DNA of 64,000 nt from Candidatus Moraniibacteriota bacterium (GTDB taxonomy: Bacteria > Patescibacteriota > Minisyncoccia > Moranbacterales > UBA2206). Of this stretch, positions 6,640-59,569 are shown piece after piece. The notes under the pieces were generated by a model. It saw nothing but the letters and a program-made list of their open reading frames with translations. It was not told where the DNA came from and searched no databases. The stretch spans positions 3,868 to 67,867 of the forward strand of contig JBAQUL010000005.1 of assembly GCA_049297495.1 (NCBI GenBank). The letters run 5' to 3'. Made by a program: the position numbers and the translations under genes. Position 1 is the first letter of the stretch, and the number at the start of each line of letters is the position of its first letter.

Positions 6640-6763
6640 TCCAATATTCCTCTGTTTTATTATATCACAGTTAGAATATAATTTTACACATGAAAAATAC
6701 GACCCATAAGAGCCGTATAGTTTGCGGAGACGGTCCCGCCGCAGCGGGATGACCTATTAACAA

Positions 6764-6840
6764 TGGCGGGGACGGCCGGACTCGAACCGGTGACCTACTG
6801 CGTGACAGGCAGTCGCTCTAACCAACTGAGCTACGCCCCC
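6764..6840 (-). tRNA. tRNA-Asp (GTC), CCA encoded
   Basis: The reverse complement folds as a cloverleaf: GGGGGCG/TA/GCTC-AGTTGGTTA-GAGC/G/ACTGC-CTGTCAC-GCAGT/AGGTC/ACCGG-TTCGAGT-CCGGC/CGTCCCC/GCCA. The anticodon loop CTGTCAC gives anticodon GTC. Confidence 0.85.
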
Positions 6841-6866
6841 AATGTATTATTCTATTTTAAATTTAC

Positions 6867-6922
6867 ACCTACTGCGTGGCAGTCCGCCGGCTGGCGGATC
6901 TAACCAACTGAGCTACGCCCCC
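6867..6922 (-). pseudogene. tRNA fragment: 5' half of the tRNA-Asp sequence fused to a GC hairpin, with no T-arm
   Basis: The reverse complement starts GGGGGCGTAGCTCAGTTGGTTAGA (identical to the tRNA-Asp 5' part), then the hairpin TCCGCCAGCCGGCGGA, then CTGCCACGCAGTAGGT. There is no T-arm or 3' acceptor strand. The same hairpin type recurs at 10543-10558. Confidence 0.6.
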
Positions 6923-7001
6923 AAATTGTATTATGTATCTGGTATTTAGTATCAAGTATTCATACAACATACTAGATACCTTATACTAAATACTATTTTT
7001 G

Positions 7002-7091: not shown

Positions 7092-7769
7092 TCAAGCAGC
7101 TTCGCCGAGAGCTTTCATCAAACCCATAATCTCATAGAACAATTCCGAACTTTTTGCGATTCTTATGCACAGCGTTCCATAATGCTGAAAATGATTTTCG
7201 TAAACTTTTTTATTTTCTGTTTTTATTAAAATCGGCTTTCTGAACTGCTTAACCGATACTCCTGTTATATTTGACCAATATCTATCAACTTCGCGCAATC
7301 TTTCCTTGTGAATTTCGTTTATTGCAACATGCATGGCAAATCTTTCATTTGGAATATGCAACGCTTCCCTAAACCATCTCATGGCAAATTTAACAATCAG
7401 CTGATCTGAATTATAGAATCTTACCCTTGGATCTCTCTTGCTCCCCTCTCCCCAATATAAAGCAAGTCCAGCAATAAGCAGCTCCCTCTTTTTCAGAGCA
7501 ACAATCTCTTTTCTTCCTTTTTCTATGTACTGTTCTATTTTTTGTAGTTTCCTGTTTTTTTGAGACAACGCTCCTTTCATGCGCCCTTCGTACCCGCCCC
7601 TCACCATTTTAACATGCAATTTTTTAATTTGTGCAACAGATAAGATAATATCCGAACACCAAACACTAACAGAACTCTTAGATACCTCGAGTTCTTTTGC
7701 GATGTCTTTGATGCTATAGCCTTTTTTTCTCAGGCCACGTGCTGCTACTATTTCTTTTGACTTTGCCAT
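7092..7769 (-). CDS. LAGLIDADG-family homing endonuclease with an N-terminal HTH
   Basis: 225 aa. N-terminal HTH (GYSIKDIAKELEVSKSSVSVW) followed by the motif LIAGLALYWGEGSKR, which is the LAGLIDADG signature. It sits between tRNA genes. Confidence 0.75.
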   Translation of the reverse strand: MAKSKEIVAARGLRKKGYSIKDIAKELEVSKSSVSVWCSDIILSVAQIKKLHVKMVRGGYEGRMKGALSQKNRKLQKIEQYIEKGRKEIVALKKRELLIAGLALYWGEGSKRDPRVRFYNSDQLIVKFAMRWFREALHIPNERFAMHVAINEIHKERLREVDRYWSNITGVSVKQFRKPILIKTENKKVYENHFQHYGTLCIRIAKSSELFYEIMGLMKALGEAA

Positions 7770-8556: not shown

Positions 8557-10011
8557 TTATTTACTAATCTCATAAGCATGCGCCGCGCGCAACATATTTT
8601 CCTCGTCAAACCATTTTGCCATTAATTGAAATCCAAACGGAAGTTTCTTTCCATCAACTTCAACCTCCGGCCCCGGAACAGAAATCGCTGGCACGCCGAC
8701 AATATTAGCTGTAATGGAAAACATATCAGCCAGATACATTTTTAAGGGATCTTCGTTTTTTTCTCCTATCTTAAAAGCTGGGGTAGGCGCAGTAGGAGCA
8801 AGAATCAAATCAACTTTTTCAAATGCTTTTTCAAAATCACTCTTAATCAGCGTTCGCACCTTTTGCGCCTTGAGATAATAGGCATCATAATAACCAGATG
8901 AAAGTGCGTATGTTCCAAGCATAATCCTTCTCTTCACTTCCTTACCAAAACCATATTGGCGAGAATCGAGATAGGTCTCCAAAAGTTTTTTAGGCATACC
9001 GTCCTCCCTCACACCAGAATCCTGCTTATCATCAACATTAAGCCCATATCTAATTCCGTCATATCTTGCTAGATTCGAACTGACTTCGCAAGGTTGAATG
9101 ATATAGTATGTCGCTAAGGAATATTTTGAATGTGGCAGTTCAATCTCTACAATTTCTGCCCCTAATTTCTTATAAGTTTCAATAACTTCAAGAATGGATT
9201 TCTTCTCTTTTTCATCCAGCCCATCAATATATTCAGCCACAATTCCAATCCTAAGTCCCTGGACTTCTCCGGTCAAATATTTCGTATAATCCTTTCCTGA
9301 GCTATGGGCTGAGGTAGCGTCCAGCTTATCCTGTCCGGCAATCGCACTAAGTACAATTGCTGCGTCTTCTACGTTTTTTGTTATTGGTCCAATTTGGTCA
9401 AGACTTGATGCCATCGCAATTGCCCCATGGCGCGAAACGCGACCATAAGTTGGCTTCAAACCGACTACTCCGCAGAAAGAAGCTGGCTCACGAATTGAAC
9501 CGCCCGTATCTGTCCCTAATGCCCAAGCGGCTTCGCCCGCAGCTACCGCTGCCGCTGAACCGCCAGATGAACCACCAGCTACACGAGTCAAGTCTAATGG
9601 ATTTTTTGTAACACCATAGGCGCTGTTTTCTGTCGATGATCCCATGGCAAATTCGTCCAGATTAGTTTTTCCCAAAAATACTGACCCAACCTCTTTCAAT
9701 CTTTCAATCACCGTCGCGTCATAGGGAGCGATATAGCTATCTAAAATCTTAGAAGCAGCCGTTGTTCTCACGCCAGAAATGCAAAGATTGTCTTTGATTG
9801 CTCCCGGAATCCCCTCTAAGAGTTCAATTTTTTCGCCTCGAACAATTTTTGCGTCCACTTTGCGGGCTTGTTCTAACGCCAAGTCTTTAGTTAAAGTTAG
9901 ATAAGCAAAAATATCTTTATCTTTTTCTTCAATACGCGCAAAATACTCTTCCGTCAATTTCACTGAAGTTATTTCACCTGATATTAATTTATTGTGGAGT
10001 TCTCTGATCAT
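8557..10011 (-). CDS. gatA: Asp-tRNA(Asn)/Glu-tRNA(Gln) amidotransferase subunit A
   Basis: 484 aa with the amidase signature GGSSGGSAAAVAAGEA...GTDTGGSIR and GatA-typical length and N-terminus. Confidence 0.9.
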   Translation of the reverse strand: MIRELHNKLISGEITSVKLTEEYFARIEEKDKDIFAYLTLTKDLALEQARKVDAKIVRGEKIELLEGIPGAIKDNLCISGVRTTAASKILDSYIAPYDATVIERLKEVGSVFLGKTNLDEFAMGSSTENSAYGVTKNPLDLTRVAGGSSGGSAAAVAAGEAAWALGTDTGGSIREPASFCGVVGLKPTYGRVSRHGAIAMASSLDQIGPITKNVEDAAIVLSAIAGQDKLDATSAHSSGKDYTKYLTGEVQGLRIGIVAEYIDGLDEKEKKSILEVIETYKKLGAEIVEIELPHSKYSLATYYIIQPCEVSSNLARYDGIRYGLNVDDKQDSGVREDGMPKKLLETYLDSRQYGFGKEVKRRIMLGTYALSSGYYDAYYLKAQKVRTLIKSDFEKAFEKVDLILAPTAPTPAFKIGEKNEDPLKMYLADMFSITANIVGVPAISVPGPEVEVDGKKLPFGFQLMAKWFDEENMLRAAHAYEISK

Positions 10012-10030
10012 GGATTCGCCTTATTCATAT

Positions 10031-10209
10031 CCCCTTCGCCCCTCAGGAGAAGCCTGCCTGCCGGTAGGCAGGGTGGCCCCGCCACGGCGGGGATGAGGGC
10101 AAGGGCGTTTGATATATTTATTACTATCTTATATACAACAATTTTTCCTTTAAATAAAACCCTTGCCCTCACCTGTCCTTCGGACATCCTCTCCCAAGGG
10201 GAGAGGAGA
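10031..10209. repeat. GC-rich composite palindromic element (copy B) lying between gatC and gatA
   Basis: Shares with copy A the blocks CCCCTTCGCCCCTCAGGAGAAG, CCTGCCTGCCGGTAGGCAGG, GTGGCCCCGCCACGGCGGGGATGAGGGCAAGGGCG, an AT-rich loop, and CCCTTGCCCTCACCTGTC, then the hairpins GTCCTTCGGAC and CCTCTCCCAAGGGGAGAGG. It fills the 221-bp gap between the gatC stop (10233) and the gatA start (10011). Confidence 0.6.
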
Positions 10210-10232
10210 CAGTTTTTATTGACTACTGAAAA

Positions 10233-10514
10233 CTATAATACTGACTTCACCTTATCATACCCATTTTTACTCTCCGGAAACAATTCAACAATTTTCTCTT
10301 TATTTAAAAAATCTTCCATCCGATCTTCTCTAGAAACATCATTCATGCCTGTAATATGCGCGGTTGGCAAAACTCCCGCCACATCCACCTCATCAAGCTG
10401 TTTTATCCAATCCAAAATCGACGACAAATCATGGGAAAATTTATCCATTTCTTTTTCGGTAATCCCGATTCTAGCTAAATTCGCGATGTGCTTTACTTCG
10501 TCCTTTGATAACAT
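10233..10514 (-). CDS. gatC: Asp-tRNA(Asn)/Glu-tRNA(Gln) amidotransferase subunit C
   Basis: 93 aa, MLSKDEVKHIANLARIGITEKE..., a typical GatC N-terminus. Confidence 0.85.
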   Translation of the reverse strand: MLSKDEVKHIANLARIGITEKEMDKFSHDLSSILDWIKQLDEVDVAGVLPTAHITGMNDVSREDRMEDFLNKEKIVELFPESKNGYDKVKSVL

Positions 10515-10679
10515 AAACGCAATAAATTAAAATTTCAATCCGCCAGCTGGCGGACAAATGCCAAATAAATTTCAAAGCTCAAAATTCAAAAACTTTGTCA
10601 TTTTAATTTTGGGCTTGATTTGACACCTGCCTGCCGGTAGGCAAGGTTAGAAATTTGGTTTTTGACTTTTTAAAAATCA

Positions 10680-12992
10680 TTACTGGATCATTCTTCTGAA
10701 TTCCTCCTCGTCTATAATCCTCACCCCCAACTCCTTCGCCTTGCCATATTTCGACCCAGGATTTTCCCCGGCAATCACATAGTCGGTATTTTTGCTAACA
10801 GATGAGGAAACACTTCCTCCTGCTTTTCTAATCATATCCTTTAGAACGTCTCTTGTAAAGTTTTCAGCCTCTCCGGTGAGCACAAATGTTTTTCCCCAAA
10901 TCTTTTCATTTACTTCTTTTTTCTCATTATCTATTAAAATTTCCACGCCAGATTCTCTCATTTTCTCTAGCATTTTCACATTTTCCATATCCGAAAACCA
11001 CTGATTCAGACTCTCCGCCGACTTATCTCCAATACCCTTGATTCCCATCCAATCTTCTTTTTTTATCAAAGGAAAAAACTTGATAATGTCCGCCAGATTT
11101 GTAATTTTAAAATTTGACATTTGGTCATTGATTTGAAATTGGAAATTTGGATTTTGAAATTCCCTGTTAATCGCCCCAGTGATTAACAGGGCAGTTTCTT
11201 CGCCAGCATAGCGGATCCCCAGGGCATAGAGAAATTTATCCAATGCAATATGTTTACTTTTTTCAATCGCCAAAATCAAGTTATCAGCTGACTTTTCGGC
11301 AAAGCGCTCAAGCGGTTCCAAATCTCCTTTTTTCAGTTCAAAGATTTCCGCCATATCAGAAATCACTCCCTCGCCAATCAGTTGCTCAACAATTTTTTCA
11401 CCCAATCCGTCAATATTAAAGCCTTTTTTGGAAACAAAATGAATAATTTTTTCTTTCTCCACCGCAAAACATTTCGGATTAGCACAATAGAGTGCAGCGC
11501 TCTCTGTTCCCCCGCCTGCAACGCTATGCTCGCCCGAAGCTGTTGCATCGCTACGAGCGGGCGTAGCATTGCGGGCAGGTTTTCCGCCAATAATTTCCTT
11601 TCTCACTGGCCCACCACAAATCGGGCAAACCTGAGGCATCACAAAAACCTTTTCTTTTCCCGTACGAAGGCCAACTAGTGCTTCGGTTATTTCCGGAATA
11701 ACATCTCCCGCTTTTTGCACAACCACCGTATCCCCGATTCGCACATCCAAACGGCGTATTTCATCTTCATTGTGCAGTGTCGCGCGACTTACCATTGAAC
11801 CAGCCACCAGTACCGGTCGCAGATGTGCTACTGGCGTGAGCGCTCCAGTACGCCCCACCTGCACCCCAATATCTTCTACAACTGTAGTCACTTTTTCAGC
11901 TGGAAACTTGTAGGCAATGCCCCAACGAGGGGATTTTCCCGTGTAACCCAATTTCTCTTGAATTAAGCGCGAATTGATTTTAACCACCACCCCATCAATC
12001 CCGAAATCCTCTTTATCTTTTTTCCTCGTCCACTCCTGGTAATAATTTTCAATCTCTTCGACACTTTCACACAAGCGATAATGCTCATTCACCCGAAAAC
12101 CCAATTCTTCTAGAAGCTCCAGTTCTTCAATCTGTGTTTGTGGTAGTTTAATATTACTTTCCTCTTTGACATTTGGATTTTTGATTTTATTTGACATTGG
12201 AAATTTGGATTTTGAAATTTCCAGCATATCAATATCATACACAAAACACTCCAGCCGACGCTCAGAGGCAACCTTTGGATCGAGCTGTCTGATTGATCCG
12301 GCAGCGGCGTTCCTTGAGTTAGCAAACAATGCCTCGCCTTTTTTCGCACGCAACTTGTTGATTCGCACCAATTCTTTTTTCCCCATAAAACACTCTCCTA
12401 CCACGATGCAATTTATCGGCTGATTTAATTTCAGAGGAATATTAAAAATCGTTTTCAAATTCTCTGTCACATCCTCGCCAATCACGCCATCACCCCGCGT
12501 CGCTCCACGCACAAAGTCACCATTTTCATAGGTCAGAATAACTTTCAACCCATCAATCTTGAGCTCGCAAACATAATCCGGTTTAGTATTTGGTATCGAA
12601 TCAGTATTAAAACCAAATTCTAATTTATTTTTGGGAATTGGAACTTTGGATTTTGAAATTAAGCGAAGCGTTTTTTCTTCCCATTTCACCATTTCCTCCA
12701 AATTGAAAGCATCATTAAACGACCATTGTCTGGTTTTGTGAAGCACTTTTTGAAATTTATCGAGCGGTTTCCCGCCGATTCTTTGGGTCGGAGAGTCGAG
12801 AAATTTCCACTGGGGATATTTCTCCTCCAGCCCTTTAAGCTCTGCCATGAGGGATGAATAAACCTCATCGGTCAGATCTGGCTTATCTAAGTCATGATAT
12901 TCGTGCCGCAATTTATTAATCTCAGCTGAGAGCTTCTGAATCCGCTGCCTAATTTGTTCGTTATTTTCTTGCATAAGGGTATTATAACACAC
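10680..12992 (-). CDS. ligA: NAD-dependent DNA ligase, unusually long at 770 aa, with in-frame repeat-derived insertions; the probable true start is Met7 at 12974
   Basis: Adenylation motif CELKIDGLK, an OB fold, the Zn finger CPICGG...CANPKC, HhH and a C-terminal BRCT domain are all present. The Met7 start MQENNEQIRQRIQKL fits LigA N-termini. Three AT-rich repeat copies (11105-11162, 12165-12222, 12618-12660) are translated in frame as ...EFQNPNFQFQIND..., ...ISKSKFPMSNKIKNPN... and ...ISKSKVPIPKNKLEF.... A GC-rich segment (about 11515-11585) inserts roughly 30 aa (KPARNATPARSDATASGEHSVAGGGTESAAL) between the Cys pairs of the zinc finger. Confidence 0.9.
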   Translation of the reverse strand: MCYNTLMQENNEQIRQRIQKLSAEINKLRHEYHDLDKPDLTDEVYSSLMAELKGLEEKYPQWKFLDSPTQRIGGKPLDKFQKVLHKTRQWSFNDAFNLEEMVKWEEKTLRLISKSKVPIPKNKLEFGFNTDSIPNTKPDYVCELKIDGLKVILTYENGDFVRGATRGDGVIGEDVTENLKTIFNIPLKLNQPINCIVVGECFMGKKELVRINKLRAKKGEALFANSRNAAAGSIRQLDPKVASERRLECFVYDIDMLEISKSKFPMSNKIKNPNVKEESNIKLPQTQIEELELLEELGFRVNEHYRLCESVEEIENYYQEWTRKKDKEDFGIDGVVVKINSRLIQEKLGYTGKSPRWGIAYKFPAEKVTTVVEDIGVQVGRTGALTPVAHLRPVLVAGSMVSRATLHNEDEIRRLDVRIGDTVVVQKAGDVIPEITEALVGLRTGKEKVFVMPQVCPICGGPVRKEIIGGKPARNATPARSDATASGEHSVAGGGTESAALYCANPKCFAVEKEKIIHFVSKKGFNIDGLGEKIVEQLIGEGVISDMAEIFELKKGDLEPLERFAEKSADNLILAIEKSKHIALDKFLYALGIRYAGEETALLITGAINREFQNPNFQFQINDQMSNFKITNLADIIKFFPLIKKEDWMGIKGIGDKSAESLNQWFSDMENVKMLEKMRESGVEILIDNEKKEVNEKIWGKTFVLTGEAENFTRDVLKDMIRKAGGSVSSSVSKNTDYVIAGENPGSKYGKAKELGVRIIDEEEFRRMIQ

Positions 12993-35833: not shown

Positions 35834-38800
35834 TTAATGAGAAATCTCCTGCCAGCCTCCTGAATTACAAGGACAATAAATCGTTCCCGTGCAAGAAGTT
35901 GCGAGACATGGTGGAACACCACATCCAGGTGGAGCAACAGGAAGACATTCTTCATTTTGAACTCCGCAAACACCAGGAGTGCAAGTGGTCGGGTAGTAAC
36001 ATTGAGGAGTCATTGAGCAAGAATAATATTCACAAATTCCGCTTGCACCAGTGCAAGCACCAAAAGTTGCTTTGTTTGTCCATGGTTGCAAAGAGCTAAA
36101 ACCCGTCTCTTGAGTTCCTGGGCATTTTGTTGTTCCTGCTGGTGGAGTGACTGGATTACAACCAAATGTTCCAGCTGGAGTATAATATTCACAAATTCCG
36201 CTCACTCCCGTGCAAGCGGCAAGAGTTCCTTTGGGGGTCCATGGTTGAGCAGAACTAAAGCCTGCTTCTCGAGTTCCAGGACATTTTAGCGTTCCGACTG
36301 GTGGAGTGACTGGATTACAGCCGAATGTTCCACTAGGGATGTAATACTCGCACATTCCAAGCACCCCGGTGCAAGCAGCAAGAGTTCCCCGATTTGTCCA
36401 GGACTGAGGAGAAATAAATCCCGATTCTCTGGTTCCTGGACACTTCATTGTTCCGGTAGGTTGAGTTGTCGGCATGCAAGTGTACGAAGTCGTAGGAACG
36501 CAATGGCAACCATCACAACTTGTTCCCGATGGACAAGGCGTTCCACCACTAAATACCGTACTACATTCACAATCATCATTAACTAACACACTAGCAGAGC
36601 AAGGGGTACCTCTTGTTGCTCCCATGTATGGAGTGAATGTGCAGGTTTCCGTTCCAGTTTGTGAGGCAGTAAAATCAAATGGATAACCAGTAATATTAGA
36701 CAATCCGTAATCACCTTCTGGAATTGTTGCACCGATTCCAGAGCAAGTACCAAGCATCTTATCCGCATTGGAAGGAATCCATGTGAGCCTGGAAGTTCCA
36801 GGAGCGGTTAAACTCGTTGGTGAGAAATTTGCAACACAAGAAGGACTAGCGCAATCTATGGTTGTACTACAAGTCTTATTAGCGCCACCATTCAATCCTA
36901 AACATGTCCATCCCCACCATGTGCCAGAATATACCGTCGGCGCTCCTTGTAATGTACCCAGGGTGCAAAGATTACTAGTTGGCGCTAAACAGGAAATTCC
37001 TCCATTCGAAGAACCACAGACTGCATCAGCCCTCACGGAAACTGTTGCTTCGCAAGTAGCGCCTGGAGTTGCTCCATTGTACGGAGTAAAAGTACATACC
37101 TCTGTTCCAGTTTGGTCTACGGTAAAAGGAATCGACCCGGAACCACTGGCAGGATTAGCGACATTCATCGCAGGACTAATCGGCATTGGACCTGTGCAAG
37201 ACACTGTCATTGAATCACCGATGGAATCCCATTCAAGGACAGAACTAGCAGGAGTAGCTGATGTGGTAGTTATATTAGAAGGAGAGAACGAAGCATGACA
37301 TGAAGCTGGCTGGCAACTCTTAGTAGCAGAGCAACTCACGCTACCGCCACCATTAGCCCCCGCACAAGTCCAAAACCATGGACCAGAGCCAGTAACCGTA
37401 GAAGCGGTGCTTGATGAATCACAAAGATTAGCAGTCGGCTGTGTGCATGGGGATGTTCCATTAACAATGCCACAAACCCCTCGTGGCCTCACCAGTACAC
37501 TGGCGGAACAAGGAGTTCCGGCAGTTGCACCAATATATGGCGTGAAAGTACAAGTTTCCGTCCCACTATCCGTCGCGACAAAAGGAAAGGGAAAATTACT
37601 ATAAGACAGACCATAATCAGCCGCTGGAATCGCGCTCCCAATACCAGAACACGCGCCAATTGTCCTGTCCGCGTTGGAAGAATTCCAGGTAAGATATACC
37701 GTATCAGGAGCTTGAATGTCTGTGTCAGAAAATGAAACAGTACACGTAGGAGTGGGAATTACCGCGCTGACTACCGCAGAAGCATAACAAGCCGCGCCGG
37801 CCGTTGAACCATTATATGGAATAAACGTGCAACGAACAGTCCCTGTTTGATTCAAATAAATACCAAAGTTAGTGTAGCTGGCAGCGACATTGGGACCGTC
37901 TATGCTTGGCGAAAGTCCGCTGCAAAAAAGCATTCCATGTGTTGAATCATTCGTTGACCAAGTCAAAGGTCCCCAGCTATTAACATTATAGGAGCTAGCA
38001 CTAAAATGAATTTCACAAGTAGGATTGGAGGGAGGAGCAACCGTGTAATAAATATCGCCAGTCGCTAAATCAAAATTGCCACCACCAGATGTTGTGCCAG
38101 AGCAATTAGCGGCAACACCCCCAGAGCCTTCTCCAGTTATACAAGCCTTGAGAGAAATGACACCACTTGACGATGGCGCGTTACCAGCACTCCAAGAACC
38201 AAAATTGCTAACAGTACAACCGTTTTCAGCAGTGAATGCGCTATTGCCCTTCCAGCCAAAATCAGACCAGCTACCCGATGTGTTCGTTGCAGCTAATAGT
38301 GTAGTATTCCCACCAGAATAATTAACGCAACCAGTGAGGGCTGCACTTCCGTCATATGTCACGGATATCGCCTCTCCTGGGATATAAGTTCCTTTATTTA
38401 AATTCACAGAATAACTAAAAGCTCCCCAACTATTAAATGGCCTAGAAAGTGTAAGAGCCTCCACGCTTTGCAATCTCCAACCAAACAAAGCCCCAAACAA
38501 AAGCAAAAGCAATAACAAATTTTCAGTTTTGTTTTTCTTGTAAGAAAAAAGTGTTTTAACAACAATGGCAATCACCAAAAATAACAGGATTATGGATACT
38601 ATCAACAATACTGCTTTCTTGATATTATTTGGACTACTTTTTTGAGTTTCGCCTTCGCTGATTTTATCTTTTTGAAAATGCAAGTCTCTTTCCGCCAAGA
38701 CTTTACCTTGTTCATTTTTGAGGGTTATTTTAACATTCGGACTAGAGCAATCAATGTTGGATTTAAGCTCAAATTTAGCTATGTTTGAATTTTGATCCAA

Positions 38801-42666: not shown

Positions 42667-42685
42667 ATTAGTTTTATTTTTATCT

Positions 42686-42826
42686 CACGACTTACGCGTT
42701 TGTCAAAGAATTATTCGCACGCACAGCCTATTTAGCTGAAAAAGCCTTTGGTAAACCAGCAGTAAATAAACCAAAATGAGGAAGCGTCGCTTTCAAGAAT
42801 AATTATTTGGCAAACACGTAAGTCCT
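42686..42826. mobile_element. MITE-like element copy 1 (about 140 bp with roughly 22-bp terminal inverted repeats)
   Basis: 5' CGACTTACGCGTTTGTCAAAG and 3' TTTGGCAAACACGTAAGTCCT are inverted repeats. Same family as copies at 49543-49690 and 59411-59557. Confidence 0.55.
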
Positions 42827-45321: not shown

Positions 45322-45490
45322 AATCTTGAACTATGATTTTTATGATTATCAACAAATTTCAAAATCCTAATATCAAATTTCCAATCAAGTCTTAAATTCA
45401 AATGACAAAATAATTTTCTGGCTTATTTTCTTGGATTTTGAATTTTGGTTTTTGTTTGACATTGAAAATTAGAAATTGAAAATTAATCCT

Positions 45491-45931: not shown

Positions 45932-46102
45932 ACGTTTTAGCTTAATTGTTTATACTGGTTTATCAAAAATATCATTATTTACATCATCCCTTTGAAAAAT
46001 ATAGTCAGTAATTTCCATTTTTTATCCAAAACGCACAGCTTCAATTCGAAAATTAAGAAATTTAAGCATTGTTTGGAAATTGGAAATTGGAAATTTCTCC
46101 CC

Positions 46103-46484: not shown

Positions 46485-49367
46485 CTATTTTCCGCCACGA
46501 TCTAACAACTTAAAGTTTTTATACTCCACGCCACCGGCTTCAAGCGATGATTTGATCATTCTAGTCGTCCAAGAAAACATATTCTCTCCGGGAAGCGGAT
46601 TGGAAAAATTAGTTCCAAATTGTTTAGCAACGTATCCTTTTAATTCCACAATCTTTGAGCTCTGCCCATTTTCGCTACCCAAAAATTCGGCCGCCCCAAC
46701 AGCTTTTAGCCCCGCTACTCCACCCTCAATTTGTTGTCCCGCAAAAGTCTCTCTGGCAAGCGAATTAAAGGCCTTGGCGTAGGCTTTTTCATAACCACCT
46801 TTGGCTGATTCGAGCGCTGCCGCCCTTGCGCCACTAACATCATTAGTATCACTTACAGCTCTCGTATACGCCTCTTCCGCCGCAGCCTTTAACCTGCCAA
46901 GATCTAGTAATTCCCCTCTGTGTGATTGCATGGATTCTGGCATCGACTGAATATTTCTCAATATCTCAGCACCACCCTTGCCATACACTTTTTGATATTC
47001 ATTATTTAATTCTTGATGCATGCGATCTCCATCGGCCGAAGCATGTGATTGCGCATTTGAGTTCGGACTACTATTTTCTACACCTTCTTGCGCACGCACA
47101 CCACTATCAACCGAGCTGGAATGAGGTTCCACATCTGGCGCTACACCTGCTGAGACTGGTGCTTCTGGAGTAGGACTGACATCTGGTCCGACTGGCATCA
47201 CTTTTTCGACCGAAGGCTGATGAACTTCCGTTCCTCCTGCAGGCACATCCGGAGTGTTAACATGCGCACCAAGGATGCGGTCCACTTTGACAGTTCCTTT
47301 CTCCCAATCAACAATAACCTTTTGCCCCGGTTTGATTTTACCCAGCTCCTTAAGAGTTTCTTCATTATCAGGATTTGACGCTATCTGATGAGCCAATGTT
47401 TCTGCGTCATGAGGGCTCATGCCTTCTGCAATTTTCTGATTTATCATTATCCTCTCGACACTGTCACCCTTTGCCGCGACATACTCAGAGGCACCTTGCG
47501 CTGATACTGGCGCCTCAACCGAGCTAAACCTATCACCATCAGACGCTCCAGCATGCGTCGCTTCCATTTTTGGATTGAATCTGTCACCATCGGACGCACC
47601 AGCGTGTGTCGCTTCATGAGCAGAATCCGCATGATCAATAGGATTTGTGCCGACTTCAACCGGCGCCGGTTCACTAGCAAAAGCTAATCCTCCAGATTCG
47701 TCTGCGCCGCCCACATTCACATGTTCCCAAAGACTAGTTGCACCATCTTTCATTAGACCAAAACCCTTCCCGATGAGCCACCCTGCTGCCCCCGATCCTA
47801 CAGCAACAGCAACACCCGCCCCGATCAATTTTCTGTTTCTCGCTTGACTCTTCTCTTTTTGCAAACCATCATGATAAGTCTTCATTTCCTTACCACAATA
47901 TTCATTAAGCGCCTGAATATGTTCTTGAAGACTTCTTTCCACATTTCCCATCATCTCATTCTTGTCTTTTCCCGCTTTTTTGTTCACTTTATTCCTTGAA
48001 CGCGCCTCTAGCCCTGCCGTCACACTAGTGCCAAGCACTGCGCCACCAAGCCACCTTCGAACCAGATTAACGCCAGTTACACCAGCCACAGCTACAGCCG
48101 ATCCAGTGAATGCAGCATAACCTCCAGCTGCAAAAAGAGCTACCGCAATACCTGTTTTTATTCTTGGATCCAGCGTACGGTACTTATTAATCAATTCTGC
48201 GCCTATCTTCAAAGCTTTCTCGCCAAATCTTCCCATCTTCGTTTCTGACCAGGATGCTGTTCGCGCATCCGTCCTTGCTCCCGCCAAATCAAGTTTCTCG
48301 GTGAAGCCAAAATATGTTGCCATGTCACCCATCTCTTTTTTCATTTCCGTCATCGCCGCCGCTTTTTCCGCTGGTGGCAAACTATCCATGTTGGCATATT
48401 TATCTCGCATCGCTTGGATTTGCAAATTCCGCAACTCATTTAATGCTCCTTGATATTGCTGATAAGCAAATGAATCTTTGGCGCCAGTTGGCAAATTTTC
48501 AGTCTTCATACCCAGCACACTTTTGAGCTTTGTGAAAATATTCGTTGTTCTATAATCCTCAGCGGCATAACCTTTTCTTTTTTCTTCTACTAAAATTCTC
48601 AGCTCTTCGAGCTTGCCAAGCTTTTCTTTTTCTTCAGGACTATAAGCAGCATCTTTCTCTTCGCCCATCTTAAACCGACCATCATCTTTTTCCTCTATGC
48701 TCTTGCCAATTTTTCTGCCCATATTTTTCCGAGTCTCTCTCTTAGCGTCGGTCTTCTCTTTTTCTCCAGCAGGAATGATATCTCCAATTTCTCCTTGATA
48801 AGCGGCAAAAGCGCCTTCCTGCATCCCATCATCCTCTCTTCTTATAATATCCGCTTCAGGCTTAACACCCTCAGCTTTTTTCTTGCCAGTATCGCCAGTC
48901 TCTTCTTGGTAGGCCGCAAAAGCGCTTTCTTGCATTTCATCATCCTCTCTTCTGATGATATCTGCCTTCGCATCAATACCTTTCGAGACTGGATCAGTTT
49001 TTGTCCCACTTTCAACATCCTCCACCTGATAAGCTGCGAAAGCATTTTCTTGCATATCATCACCATCTCTTCTGATGTGATCCATCTTTGCATCAATACC
49101 CTTTGAGACTGGATCAGTCACCATCTTCTGCGCATCCTCTCCTTGGTAGGCCGCAAAAGCGCTTTCTTGCATTTCATCACCTTTTTTTCTAATCATATCC
49201 GCTTCCGTATCGACACCCACGTGTTTTTTTTCACCGCCAGCCATTCCCGCTTTTGCCCTAGCAAGTTCAAGCCGCTTTCTTTTTTCCTCAGTTTGAGGGA
49301 ACTCAATTATTTTATTTTTCTTAACCCCAGGTTTGGTCTCTGGCTTAAATGCAAAACTTTCCTTCAT
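46485..49367 (-). CDS. large membrane protein with about 5 tandem 27-aa repeats, Gly/Ala-rich TM helices and a LysM-like C-terminal segment
   Basis: 960 aa; repeats DPVSKGIDAK.D.IRR.(G/E)D(D/E)MQE.AFAAYQ (81-bp DNA tandem repeats at about 48770-49120); TM helices TGIAVALFAAGGYAAFTGSAVAVAG and LIGAGVAVAVGSGAAGWLIG; LysM-like ...GDSVERIM...LGKIKPGQKVIV. Confidence 0.6.
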   Translation of the reverse strand: MKESFAFKPETKPGVKKNKIIEFPQTEEKRKRLELARAKAGMAGGEKKHVGVDTEADMIRKKGDEMQESAFAAYQGEDAQKMVTDPVSKGIDAKMDHIRRDGDDMQENAFAAYQVEDVESGTKTDPVSKGIDAKADIIRREDDEMQESAFAAYQEETGDTGKKKAEGVKPEADIIRREDDGMQEGAFAAYQGEIGDIIPAGEKEKTDAKRETRKNMGRKIGKSIEEKDDGRFKMGEEKDAAYSPEEKEKLGKLEELRILVEEKRKGYAAEDYRTTNIFTKLKSVLGMKTENLPTGAKDSFAYQQYQGALNELRNLQIQAMRDKYANMDSLPPAEKAAAMTEMKKEMGDMATYFGFTEKLDLAGARTDARTASWSETKMGRFGEKALKIGAELINKYRTLDPRIKTGIAVALFAAGGYAAFTGSAVAVAGVTGVNLVRRWLGGAVLGTSVTAGLEARSRNKVNKKAGKDKNEMMGNVERSLQEHIQALNEYCGKEMKTYHDGLQKEKSQARNRKLIGAGVAVAVGSGAAGWLIGKGFGLMKDGATSLWEHVNVGGADESGGLAFASEPAPVEVGTNPIDHADSAHEATHAGASDGDRFNPKMEATHAGASDGDRFSSVEAPVSAQGASEYVAAKGDSVERIMINQKIAEGMSPHDAETLAHQIASNPDNEETLKELGKIKPGQKVIVDWEKGTVKVDRILGAHVNTPDVPAGGTEVHQPSVEKVMPVGPDVSPTPEAPVSAGVAPDVEPHSSSVDSGVRAQEGVENSSPNSNAQSHASADGDRMHQELNNEYQKVYGKGGAEILRNIQSMPESMQSHRGELLDLGRLKAAAEEAYTRAVSDTNDVSGARAAALESAKGGYEKAYAKAFNSLARETFAGQQIEGGVAGLKAVGAAEFLGSENGQSSKIVELKGYVAKQFGTNFSNPLPGENMFSWTTRMIKSSLEAGGVEYKNFKLLDRGGK

Positions 49368-49542
49368 TTTGTTGTTTCTAATTTTTTATAAATATTAAAA
49401 AGATAACTGTGACTTTCACTTGTTTAAATTATACAACAAAAAAACAATTCTTGCTACAAGACAAATAACTTCCTGCTGTGGATAACGTAAAAATATGATA
49501 TACTAATCTTACAATGAATTTAAAGATTAAAAAAAATGATCA

Positions 49543-49690
49543 GGACTTACGCGTTTGCCAAAAATAAGCTTTTCCATAGCCGGGGTTGATTAAAAAAAGC
49601 TTTGGTAGTTTTGGGCGTTAAGATAAACAAAAAACAAACTCTAAGTAACCACGCGCTTTAAAGATTGTTTTTGGTAAATGCGTAAGTCCT
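49543..49690. mobile_element. MITE-like element copy 2
   Basis: TIRs AGGACTTACGCGTTTGCCAAAAA and TTTTTGGTAAATGCGTAAGTCCT; about 75% identical to copy 3 over the whole element. Confidence 0.6.
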
Positions 49691-49716
49691 AATAATAAAA
49701 TAAATATATTAAACCT

Positions 49717-59292: not shown

Positions 59293-59410
59293 TGATTTAG
59301 CTTTAAAATATTATATCTCGCCCATATATCGACTATACACTAAACAAGGCTTTAAAGCAACCTTTATTAGAAGAGACGCTCCATAGTGGAGCGTCTCTTT
59401 TTATAAATAC

Positions 59411-59557
59411 AGGACTTACGCGTTTGCCAAAAACAAGCTTCCCTATAGCCAAGATTGGCCTGGAAAATTTCAGCAGTCTCGAGAGCTAAAAGAAGCAAAA
59501 GCAAGCTCTGGGCAGTCATGCGCTTTGAAGATTGTTTTTGGTGAACGCGTAAATCAT
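59411..59557. mobile_element. MITE-like element copy 3
   Basis: AGGACTTACGCGTTTGCCAAAAA ... TTTTTGGTGAACGCGTAAATCAT; internal similarity to copy 2 (AAGCTTCCCTATAGCC.., GCGCTTTGAAGATTGTTTTTGG). Confidence 0.6.
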
Positions 59558-59569
59558 TAAAAACTAAAA

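Follow-up and report, generated by a model that had tools for sequence, protein, structure and literature searches.

GatC and GatA are subunits of one enzyme, and in several relatives of the bacterium considered here the gatC stop and gatA start codons overlap by 4 nucleotides (nt). In the window, meaning the whole 64,000-nt stretch of DNA analysed here (GC content 40.6%; Candidatus Moraniibacteriota, candidate phyla radiation), the two genes lie 221 nt apart, and the spacer holds a structured palindromic element, copy B. What is this element, and how did it come to lie between gatC and gatA? Copy B is most probably a non-coding, non-autonomous repeat of the MITE or REPIN type (miniature inverted-repeat transposable element; doublet of repetitive extragenic palindromic, REP, sequences), which was secondarily inserted and is read through in the gatC-gatA operon. 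That a palindromic repeat inserts between genes is nothing unusual, but the family to which this one belongs seems to be new.

We took the gatC-gatA junction from relatives graded by the identity of their GatA to that of the window. The junction was empty, with the 4-nt ATGA stop/start overlap, in L006/L007 (91%), L008/L009 (90%), L027 (90%), L029 (87%) and the outgroup L048 (79%). A 249-nt spacer with a different GC-stem/AT-loop palindrome was present in L004, L005 and L046 (GatA 96%). The junction of L028 (189 nt) contained an AT-rich palindrome, that of L030 (144 nt) a different AT-rich palindrome, and that of L047 (82 nt) an AT-rich repeat also present in the ligA-gatC spacer of the window. 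The element was not at gatC-gatA in any relative examined, the 96% relative included; between the window and L004, gatA was 93.7% identical at the nucleotide level, whereas the spacers could not be aligned. In the tree of GatC and GatA, the empty state was basal and scattered, so that unrelated sequences must have entered the junction on up to five independent occasions, and the gatC/gatA overlap was broken in up to five of 11 related lineages. Judged from these sequences, copy B is a secondary insertion at a place where gatC and gatA ancestrally overlapped by 4 nt. The original prediction, made from the window alone, had proposed a mobile repeat inserted in this operon and had named a spacer conserved in all relatives as the observation that would speak against it. 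What we found were five empty ATGA overlaps, four junctions with unrelated sequences and a multi-copy family of palindromic repeats, all in line with the proposed insertion.

The label "copy B" implied a second copy in the window, and copy A, 78% identical to copy B and colinear with it on the plus strand, was indeed present upstream of gyrB. Further copies were collected with the two core arms as the search pattern, and their invariance across copies is therefore partly a matter of construction. An exact-pattern scan over one genome per species gave 17 places, five of which had the full architecture (L012, L024, L021, L015 and L016, all Moraniibacteriota or low-GC assemblies); the other 12 were rejected as chance GC hairpins in unrelated, mostly high-GC genomes. 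A metagenome scan gave 15 further copies. The covariance model, built from 21 copies with the end-truncated L040 copy left out, recovered all 21 at 125-168 bits and added four diverged copies (L004:17228, L028:16618, L033:1579 and L038:10605) as well as the truncated one. In total, the family has 26 copies, all from Candidatus Moraniibacteriota, at different loci in at least six assemblies or metagenomes, with two copies on several contigs.

The copies are 151-190 nt long (consensus ~155-165 nt) and share imperfect terminal inverted repeats of ~22 nt (TCCCCTTCGCCCYYCGGGAGAAGG), small GC hairpins, an invariant 11-bp core stem and an AT-rich centre. In the 21 copies that could be aligned over their full length, the arms averaged 87.5% identity and the centre 53.6%, with two to three centre subtypes. 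Standard pairs made up 96.3% of the pair cells in these copies, changes on both sides occurred at six pairs, mainly in the small hairpins H2 and H3 (Table 1), and the observed pairing or covariation score was reached by none of 500 shuffles. In other copies than copy B, the H2 position read GGCC-GAA-GGCC or GCCC-GAA-GGGC, the changes being compensated, and H3 varied in length and sequence while its pairing stayed at 100%. Three copies (L036:3369-3437, L039:4798-4866 and L045:3156-3224) had an extra partial right end (CCTCACCTGTCAC...GAGGAGG) ~25 nt after the copy and are composite or partly duplicated elements.

No family copies were found in viral contigs, phages or plasmids. At gathering thresholds, Rfam returned only three tRNAs for the whole window, and at E ≤ 10 it gave nothing credible for 9950-10700 (best 23.8 bits against a family threshold of 100). 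A literature search on MITEs or palindromic repeats in the candidate phyla radiation or Patescibacteria found nothing relevant. The family appears to be previously undescribed, and we know of no such repeats from this phylum.

The boundaries of copy B were set by the end of similarity to the other copies and by the covariance-model match, which covered all 159 model positions with 129.9 bits (E = 8e-31, cmsearch) on the minus strand versus 92.6 bits on the plus strand. The limits first proposed, 10031-10209, were thus right within one base. Copy B is longer than the family consensus because a nested 20-nt palindrome has been added. Its terminal repeats are imperfect inverted copies of one another and each also forms a small hairpin of its own; the RNA may therefore fold into local hairpins side by side or close into a single multi-branch structure. 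Both the minimum-free-energy fold and RNAalifold chose the closed form, with a predicted outer stem of ~19 bp from the terminal repeats, a 15-bp core stem and three small GC hairpins. The minus-strand (mRNA-sense) fold had -95.2 kcal/mol (z = -5.3), and none of 200 dinucleotide shuffles was as stable; the plus-strand fold had -82.4 kcal/mol (z = -4.6, dinucleotide shuffles). The window has 22 intergenic gaps that measure 100 nt or more, and those with copies A and B were by far the most structured (z ≈ -11 and -9.6, from mononucleotide shuffles, which are rougher than the dinucleotide shuffles used for the spacer fold).

The open reading frames (ORFs) and the fold hence bear out the original prediction of a structured element in a 221-nt spacer, but its wording was too broad in two respects. 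Copy B does not fill the spacer entirely, as 41 of the 221 nt (18 + 23) belong to unrelated flanks. The description as GC-rich holds for the arms, where 100-nt windows reached 0.63 GC versus 0.41 for the whole window, and fails for the 54-nt AT-rich centre. Only two ORFs overlapped copy B, one of 59 aa (10008-10187, minus) and one of 178 aa (9994-10530, plus, antisense to gatC). Both were taken as spurious and the element as non-coding; the 53.6% identity of the centre, where most of any ORF would fall, counts against coding capacity.

Table 1. Positions of the element, its parts and its neighbours in the window
Feature	Position	Strand	Length	Sequence and remarks
Copy A	899-1079	minus	181 nt	Between a 130-aa membrane-protein ORF and gyrB
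gatA	8557-10011	minus	484 aa	ORF; gene 3' of the element
gatC-gatA spacer	10012-10232	minus	221 nt	
gatA-side flank	10012-10029	minus	18 nt	Outside the repeat; similarity to other copies stops at the terminal repeat
Copy B	10030-10209	minus	180 nt	Palindromic element; family-model strand, which is the mRNA strand
Terminal inverted repeat 1	10030-10052			TCCCCTTCGCCCCTCAGGAGAAG; small hairpin alone; also pairs with 10188-10209 (outer stem)
Nested palindrome	10053-10072		20 nt	CCTGCCTGCCGGTAGGCAGG; extra to the family consensus (GGAGAAG^GTGG)
GTGG				Between the nested palindrome and H2, plus-strand reading of copy B
Hairpin H2	10077-10092			CCCCGCCACGGCGGGG
Core long hairpin	10095-10170			Arms GAGGGCAAGGG (10095-10105) and CCCTTGCCCTC (10160-10170), 11 nt each
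AT-rich centre	10106-10159		54 nt	Between the core arms
Hairpin H3	10172-10189			CCTGTCCTTCGGACATCC
Terminal inverted repeat 2	10188-10209			CCTCTCCCAAGGGGAGAGGAGA; reads as a terminator-like hairpin and T run on the plus strand only
gatC-side flank	10210-10232	minus	23 nt	From the gatC stop codon (TAG) to the element; outside the repeat
gatC	10233-10514	minus	93 aa	Pfam GatC PF02686, E = 9e-17; gene 5' of the element
GC hairpin	10540-10553			CCGCCAGCTGGCGG; ligA-gatC spacer
Solo CCTGCC palindrome	10626-10645		20 nt	ligA-gatC spacer
ligA	10680-12992	minus		Third minus-strand gene; order ligA-gatC-gatA

Both genes beside the element are intact, and the lengths of GatC (93 aa) and GatA (484 aa) equal those of the relatives. 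The GatA of the window was 100% identical to P0001, a protein named GatA (PF01425) from a Moraniibacteriota metagenome-assembled genome, and its N-terminus, MIRELH, lined up with the GatA of the relatives; an exact look-up of the GatC protein matched no record. The gatA-side flank was unpaired in the centroid fold and contained a Shine-Dalgarno-like UAAGG (plus-strand CCTTA, 10019-10023) 7 nt 5' of the gatA AUG.

The place of copy B within an operon is typical of the family. In the contexts of the 26 copies, 17 lay between co-directional genes, four were convergent and none was divergent. The flanks left beside the copies often measured 6-40 nt on each side, and many copies nearly filled their gap. 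In 15 of the 17 tandem contexts, the transcribed strand was the same as the mRNA strand of copy B. This strand also pairs better (outer stem 96% versus 83% on the other strand, core 98.7% versus 89.8%) because its G-U pairs are A-C mismatches on the complement, and it was the more stable one in 18 of 21 copies, by a mean of 6.8 kcal/mol. At one locus, between ORFs of 135 and 232 aa, the element was present in opposite orientations (L021:1386-1543 and L038:7472-7629), which could be due to in-place inversion via the inverted repeats or to independent insertion. A terminator acting in the opposite orientation was rejected as the cause of the orientation bias, since the copies do not share the T run that follows the right end.

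We infer co-transcription of the element on the minus strand, which the original prediction had regarded as necessary, from two observations: the genes lie on the same strand, and a consensus scan of minus strand 10012-10232 found no promoter-like (sigma-70) or terminator-like (hairpin and T run) site, although the sigma-70 consensus may not describe promoters of the candidate phyla radiation. The element would thus be read through as part of the (ligA-)gatC-gatA transcript. Its insertion would also have ended the stop/start translational coupling of gatC and gatA, in which case gatA would initiate from its own weak Shine-Dalgarno UAAGG within the 18-nt flank, which is unstructured. Between the two cistrons, a stable array of RNA hairpins could stop 3' exonucleases or offer a cleavage site to an RNase specific for double strands (RNase III). 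Effects of both kinds are known for REP/BIME (bacterial interspersed mosaic element), ERIC (enterobacterial repetitive intergenic consensus) and Correia elements (PMC3733652, PMC2229807, PMC2649163). REPs that lie between unidirectional or convergent ORFs are transcribed and function as elements of the RNA (PMC3733652), and RNase III acts on the co-transcribed hairpin RNA of Correia elements (PMC2649163). By analogy with these families, copy B may serve as an exonuclease barrier or an RNase III substrate. The role in mRNA processing or stability that the original prediction had raised is plausible. On balance, we take copy B to be selfish DNA which is tolerated where it landed, a permissive site, and whose regulatory side effect, if any, is modest.

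Could the element instead divide the operon, with a terminator for gatC and a new promoter for gatA, or encode a small RNA of its own? The AT-rich centre contains, by eye, TTGATA-N17-TATACA on the plus strand, and the right end together with GACAGTTTTT is terminator-like on that strand. Both signals, however, are antisense to the operon, the mRNA strand of the spacer is free of either kind of site (as far as a sigma-70 consensus that may not be the host's can tell), and the T run after the right end varies among the copies. We consider both readings quite unlikely.

If the element were a cis-regulatory RNA dedicated to the gatCA operon (for example a processing site, an attenuator, a ribozyme or a riboswitch-like element), this would agree with the strong, non-random fold, with the strand-specific pairing via G-U and the orientation bias, and with the compensated changes in some hairpins. 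Yet the junction lacks the element in every relative examined, even at 96% GatA identity, and the element adjoins unrelated genes at ~20 other loci, which together make a dedicated role in gatCA very unlikely. There was also no Rfam match even at E ≤ 10, and copy A is decaying in L004.

It is highly improbable that the spacer is ancestral and that the relatives with overlapping genes lost it by deletion. Palindromes are deletion-prone and several lineages have some sequence at the junction, but the identical ATGA overlap occurs in the outgroup L048 and on three separate branches, and the occupied junctions hold five mutually unrelated sequences. Repeated exact deletions restoring a 4-nt overlap would be far less parsimonious than independent gains. 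A chimeric assembly join at the repeat is hardly credible: Logan contig L001 ends within copy B on one side and copy A on the other, and L002 and L003 start at the same copy B point as the L001 break, but the breaks fall in the H2 hairpin and core arm stretch that is near-identical in copies A and B, as expected of a repeat, three independent runs contain the joint between element and gatA (64 nt adjoining gatA, element end included, in the Logan assemblies L001-L003), the gene order ligA-gatC-gatA is the same in all relatives, and analogous occupied junctions exist in other assemblies.

Several observations weigh against copy B as an inserted mobile repeat whose transcribed structure matters. 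Simple insertion into ATGA does not produce the 41 nt of flank in the spacer. No transposase was found by Pfam among 10 neighbouring ORFs, and the genes tabulated for the Logan contigs and the relatives' loci included neither a Y1 nor a DDE family of Pfam; a tblastn search with an IS608 TnpA query gave no match in ~440 kb, a fraction of any genome, and had low power. Most of the strand asymmetry comes from four fixed G-U positions that every copy has inherited, so that the copies are not independent observations of it, and the orientations of transcription and replication are confounded because nearly all genes of the window lie on one strand. The orthologous copy A of the 96% relative (L004:17228-17403) has three uncompensated core-stem mismatches and has lost H2. 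The structure is thus not kept at every copy, which argues against strong selection on it at every copy. Compensated changes in DNA palindromes can also arise free of selection, from template-switch correction.

The ends of the copies bear on how such a repeat may have moved. A target-site duplication at 10031 and 10209, which the original prediction had suggested looking for, was absent at 2-8 nt and any boundary offset. Among 20 copies, no direct repeat of 2-8 nt at any boundary offset was common to more than 40%, and the best 4-nt case accounted for two of the 20. The 5' flank in consensus orientation was conserved as TTYATAT. Two further candidates were rejected, namely a relic duplication of TATGAATAAGG and the gatA start region (~60% similar over 17 nt, not significant) and homology of copy B and L041, the copy closest to it, past the terminal repeats, where alignment similarity stops at the repeats. 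The ~520 kb examined held no isolated pair of terminal repeats with an ORF between them, and no long element bounded by such repeats.

With low confidence, we suggest that these elements fit hairpin-recognising single-strand transposition of the HUH/Y1 kind, as in IS200/IS605 and in REPs moved by REP-associated tyrosine transposases (RAYTs), better than a DDE cut-and-paste MITE, because they have hairpin ends, the conserved TTYATAT flank and a strong bias in orientation, and lack a target duplication. Read on the strand of the element, TATGAT of the stop/start overlap becomes its reverse complement, ATCATA, which is similar to the flank motif; judged by sequence alone, this likeness might be the reason why such junctions are targeted. 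A bolder proposal, which we hold to be unlikely, is an undescribed single-strand hairpin transposition in Moranbacteria with a target like the reverse complement of TATGAT, the surviving copies being closed-RNA intercistronic modules. If so, such a target would account for the repeated independent colonisation of ligA/gatC and gatC/gatA by different palindrome families, a copy would persist if its transcribed strand folds into a closed RNA, and the elements would uncouple translation and set the stability of single operon segments in highly compact genomes.

The nested 20-nt CCTGCC palindrome lies outside the family consensus and is absent from 18 of the 21 aligned copies. In copy B it is located just inside terminal repeat 1; in copy A it is inverted and located at the mirror-image site inside terminal repeat 2 (1039-1058), and in L028:16618-16814 it occupies both mirror sites (16640 and 16773). 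L037 and L033:1579 have longer relatives of 31-36 nt (CCTGCCCG...CAGGCGGG) at the nested-palindrome site. This pattern may be due to hotspot insertions or to losses from a longer ancestral form. The same palindrome, CCTGCCTGCCGG(C/T)AGGCAGG, recurs as a module of its own, in the window at 1039-1058, 10053-10072 and 10626-10645 and in L006-L009, L028 and L029 3' of an ORF of 177-179 aa. Slightly longer variants of 17-21 nt occur within the ligA coding sequence of L028, and longer variants with the same ends also exist. Overall, relatives of the CCTGCC palindrome, 17-69 nt long, lie in frame within ligA of L028 and of the window.

In the window, ligA contains an in-frame GC-rich palindrome of 69-72 nt at 11511-11579 (minus; CCTGCCCGCAATGCTA...TAGCGTTGCAGGCGGG), which adds ~24 aa (PARNATPARSDATASGEHSVAGGG) and has the same type of ends as the nested CCTGCC palindromes. 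The insert is absent from the 96% relative and the other relatives, and L028 and L030 have a different insert at the site. An AT-rich repeat (GAAATTGGAAATTTGGATTTTGAAATTT) occurs in both orientations at 11100-11172, 12165-12220 and 12608-12660, all in ligA, and at 45344-45478 and 46050-46096; within ligA it is translated in frame, giving inserts of low complexity (FQNPNFQFQ, for example). Among the relatives, LigA varies in length from 688 to 788 aa and has four hypervariable sites of insertion. The ligA-gatC spacer of the window (10515-10679, 165 nt) holds an AT-rich element, AGTTTTTGAATTTTGAGCTTTGAAATTTATTTGGCATTTG, similar to the junction sequence of L047 (L047:2919-3000), and ligA and gatC likewise overlap by 4 nt in several relatives.

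Other repeats were observed elsewhere in the window. A second palindromic family (AGGACTTACGCGTTTGCCAAAAA... and an inverted partner) is located at 42685-42707, 49536-49696 and 59409-59562, and the spacer 59293-59569 is the third most structured intergenic gap (z ≈ -7). At 6735-6925 (minus), a truncated second copy of the 5' half of tRNA-Asp, with 26 identical nt, lies upstream of tRNA-Asp; the truncated copy is broken by a 16-nt GC palindrome, TCCGCCAGCCGGCGGA, and a hairpin, CCCGCTGCGGCGGG, comes after the tRNA. The tRNA 3' end and hairpin make up a 43-nt unit that is tandemly repeated in L006-L008 and L027. Between tRNA genes at 7092-7769 (minus), there is a 225-aa ORF with an N-terminal helix-turn-helix and a LAGLIDADG-like motif (LALYWGEGSK); the relatives have a GIY-YIG ORF (L004, L006) or a LAGLIDADG_3 ORF (L028) in its position, which suggests a variable homing-endonuclease slot. 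Tandem repeats at 36020-36496 (three units of 159 nt, in a 1364-aa ORF) and 48767-49234 (four units of ~111-120 nt, in a 960-aa ORF) are probably repeat domains of surface proteins.

Genomes of the candidate phyla radiation are very small and tightly packed, and flourishing selfish repeats are not expected there. Here, at least four or five palindrome families were located at operon junctions, some of them in frame in ligA. The main value of the locus lies in the repeated independent colonisation of one stop/start overlap, in the strand bias and in the nested and in-frame palindromes. As GatC and GatA are subunits of one enzyme, the probable loss of coupling makes a natural experiment on the importance of operon architecture in these organisms. 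There are also practical consequences. Such repeats break short-read assemblies, as illustrated by the Logan contigs that end within them, and they can be mistaken for structured regulatory RNAs; the covariance model can be used to annotate them.

In terms of known systems, the element matches a generic MITE in being non-coding and shorter than ~500 bp, in its terminal inverted repeats and in its multiple copies, dispersed both within genomes and from one genome to another, but it lacks the flanking target-site duplication. Elements derived from IS200/IS605 have no target duplication and carry end hairpins, a short conserved motif adjoining the insertion and a strand or orientation bias. All four features are shared by the present element; however, the ends of IS200/IS605 are not inverted repeats of each other, unlike those described here, and no TnpA or TnpB gene was found nearby.

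BOX of Streptococcus pneumoniae and ERIC (intergenic repeat units, IRU) of enterobacteria are likewise modular with a variable number of modules, stably structured, and intergenic or co-transcribed (PMC3049150, PMC2229807). Their sequences are unrelated to ours, and the variable modules here are nested palindromes at two mirror sites rather than tandem boxB. Rickettsia palindromic elements are repeats of a reduced genome that insert in frame into protein genes (PMC10969869), as do the 69-72-nt and AT-rich palindromes in ligA here. They differ in that copy B is intergenic, and there is no sequence relationship.

Correia elements of Neisseria (Correia repeat enclosed elements, CREE; neisserial miniature insertion sequences, NEMIS) are of the same 100-160-bp class and also have terminal inverted repeats and a conserved core. 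They are often co-transcribed with their neighbours; RNase III binds or cuts their long hairpin RNA, which can alter the expression of adjacent genes (PMC2649163). The two families have no sequence similarity and their terminal repeats are unrelated, as judged against the Correia consensus. Correia elements duplicate a TA target, whereas the present element shows no TA duplication and, unlike them, no detectable integration host factor (IHF) site or end-generated promoter.

To our knowledge, the candidate phyla radiation is not among the phyla from which REPs have been reported. REP and REPIN sequences carry an unpaired GTAG or CGTC tag (PMC3733652), whereas the terminal repeats, H2 and H3 have no such flanking tag; some copies of the nested palindrome have GTAG inside the stem (CCGGTAGGCAGG), and the perfect-palindrome variants have GGCAGG instead. 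The REP doublet is simple, while the present element has five helices in a fixed arrangement and an AT-rich centre of ~50 nt. REPs and REPINs are associated with a RAYT gene, and none was found here by the weak tblastn probe, which covered a fraction of a genome. In other respects, REP/BIME/REPIN sequences, mobilised by RAYTs, are close in kind to the present element. Both are GC-rich imperfect palindromes that combine into mosaic or doublet structures, both lack a target duplication and are plausibly transcribed as RNA hairpins, and both lie between unidirectional or convergent genes and avoid divergent ones (here 17 tandem, four convergent and none divergent). REP copies occasionally occur in replication or repair genes (PMC3733652), and the in-frame palindrome of ligA, of the same type, resembles both these and the Rickettsia palindromic elements.

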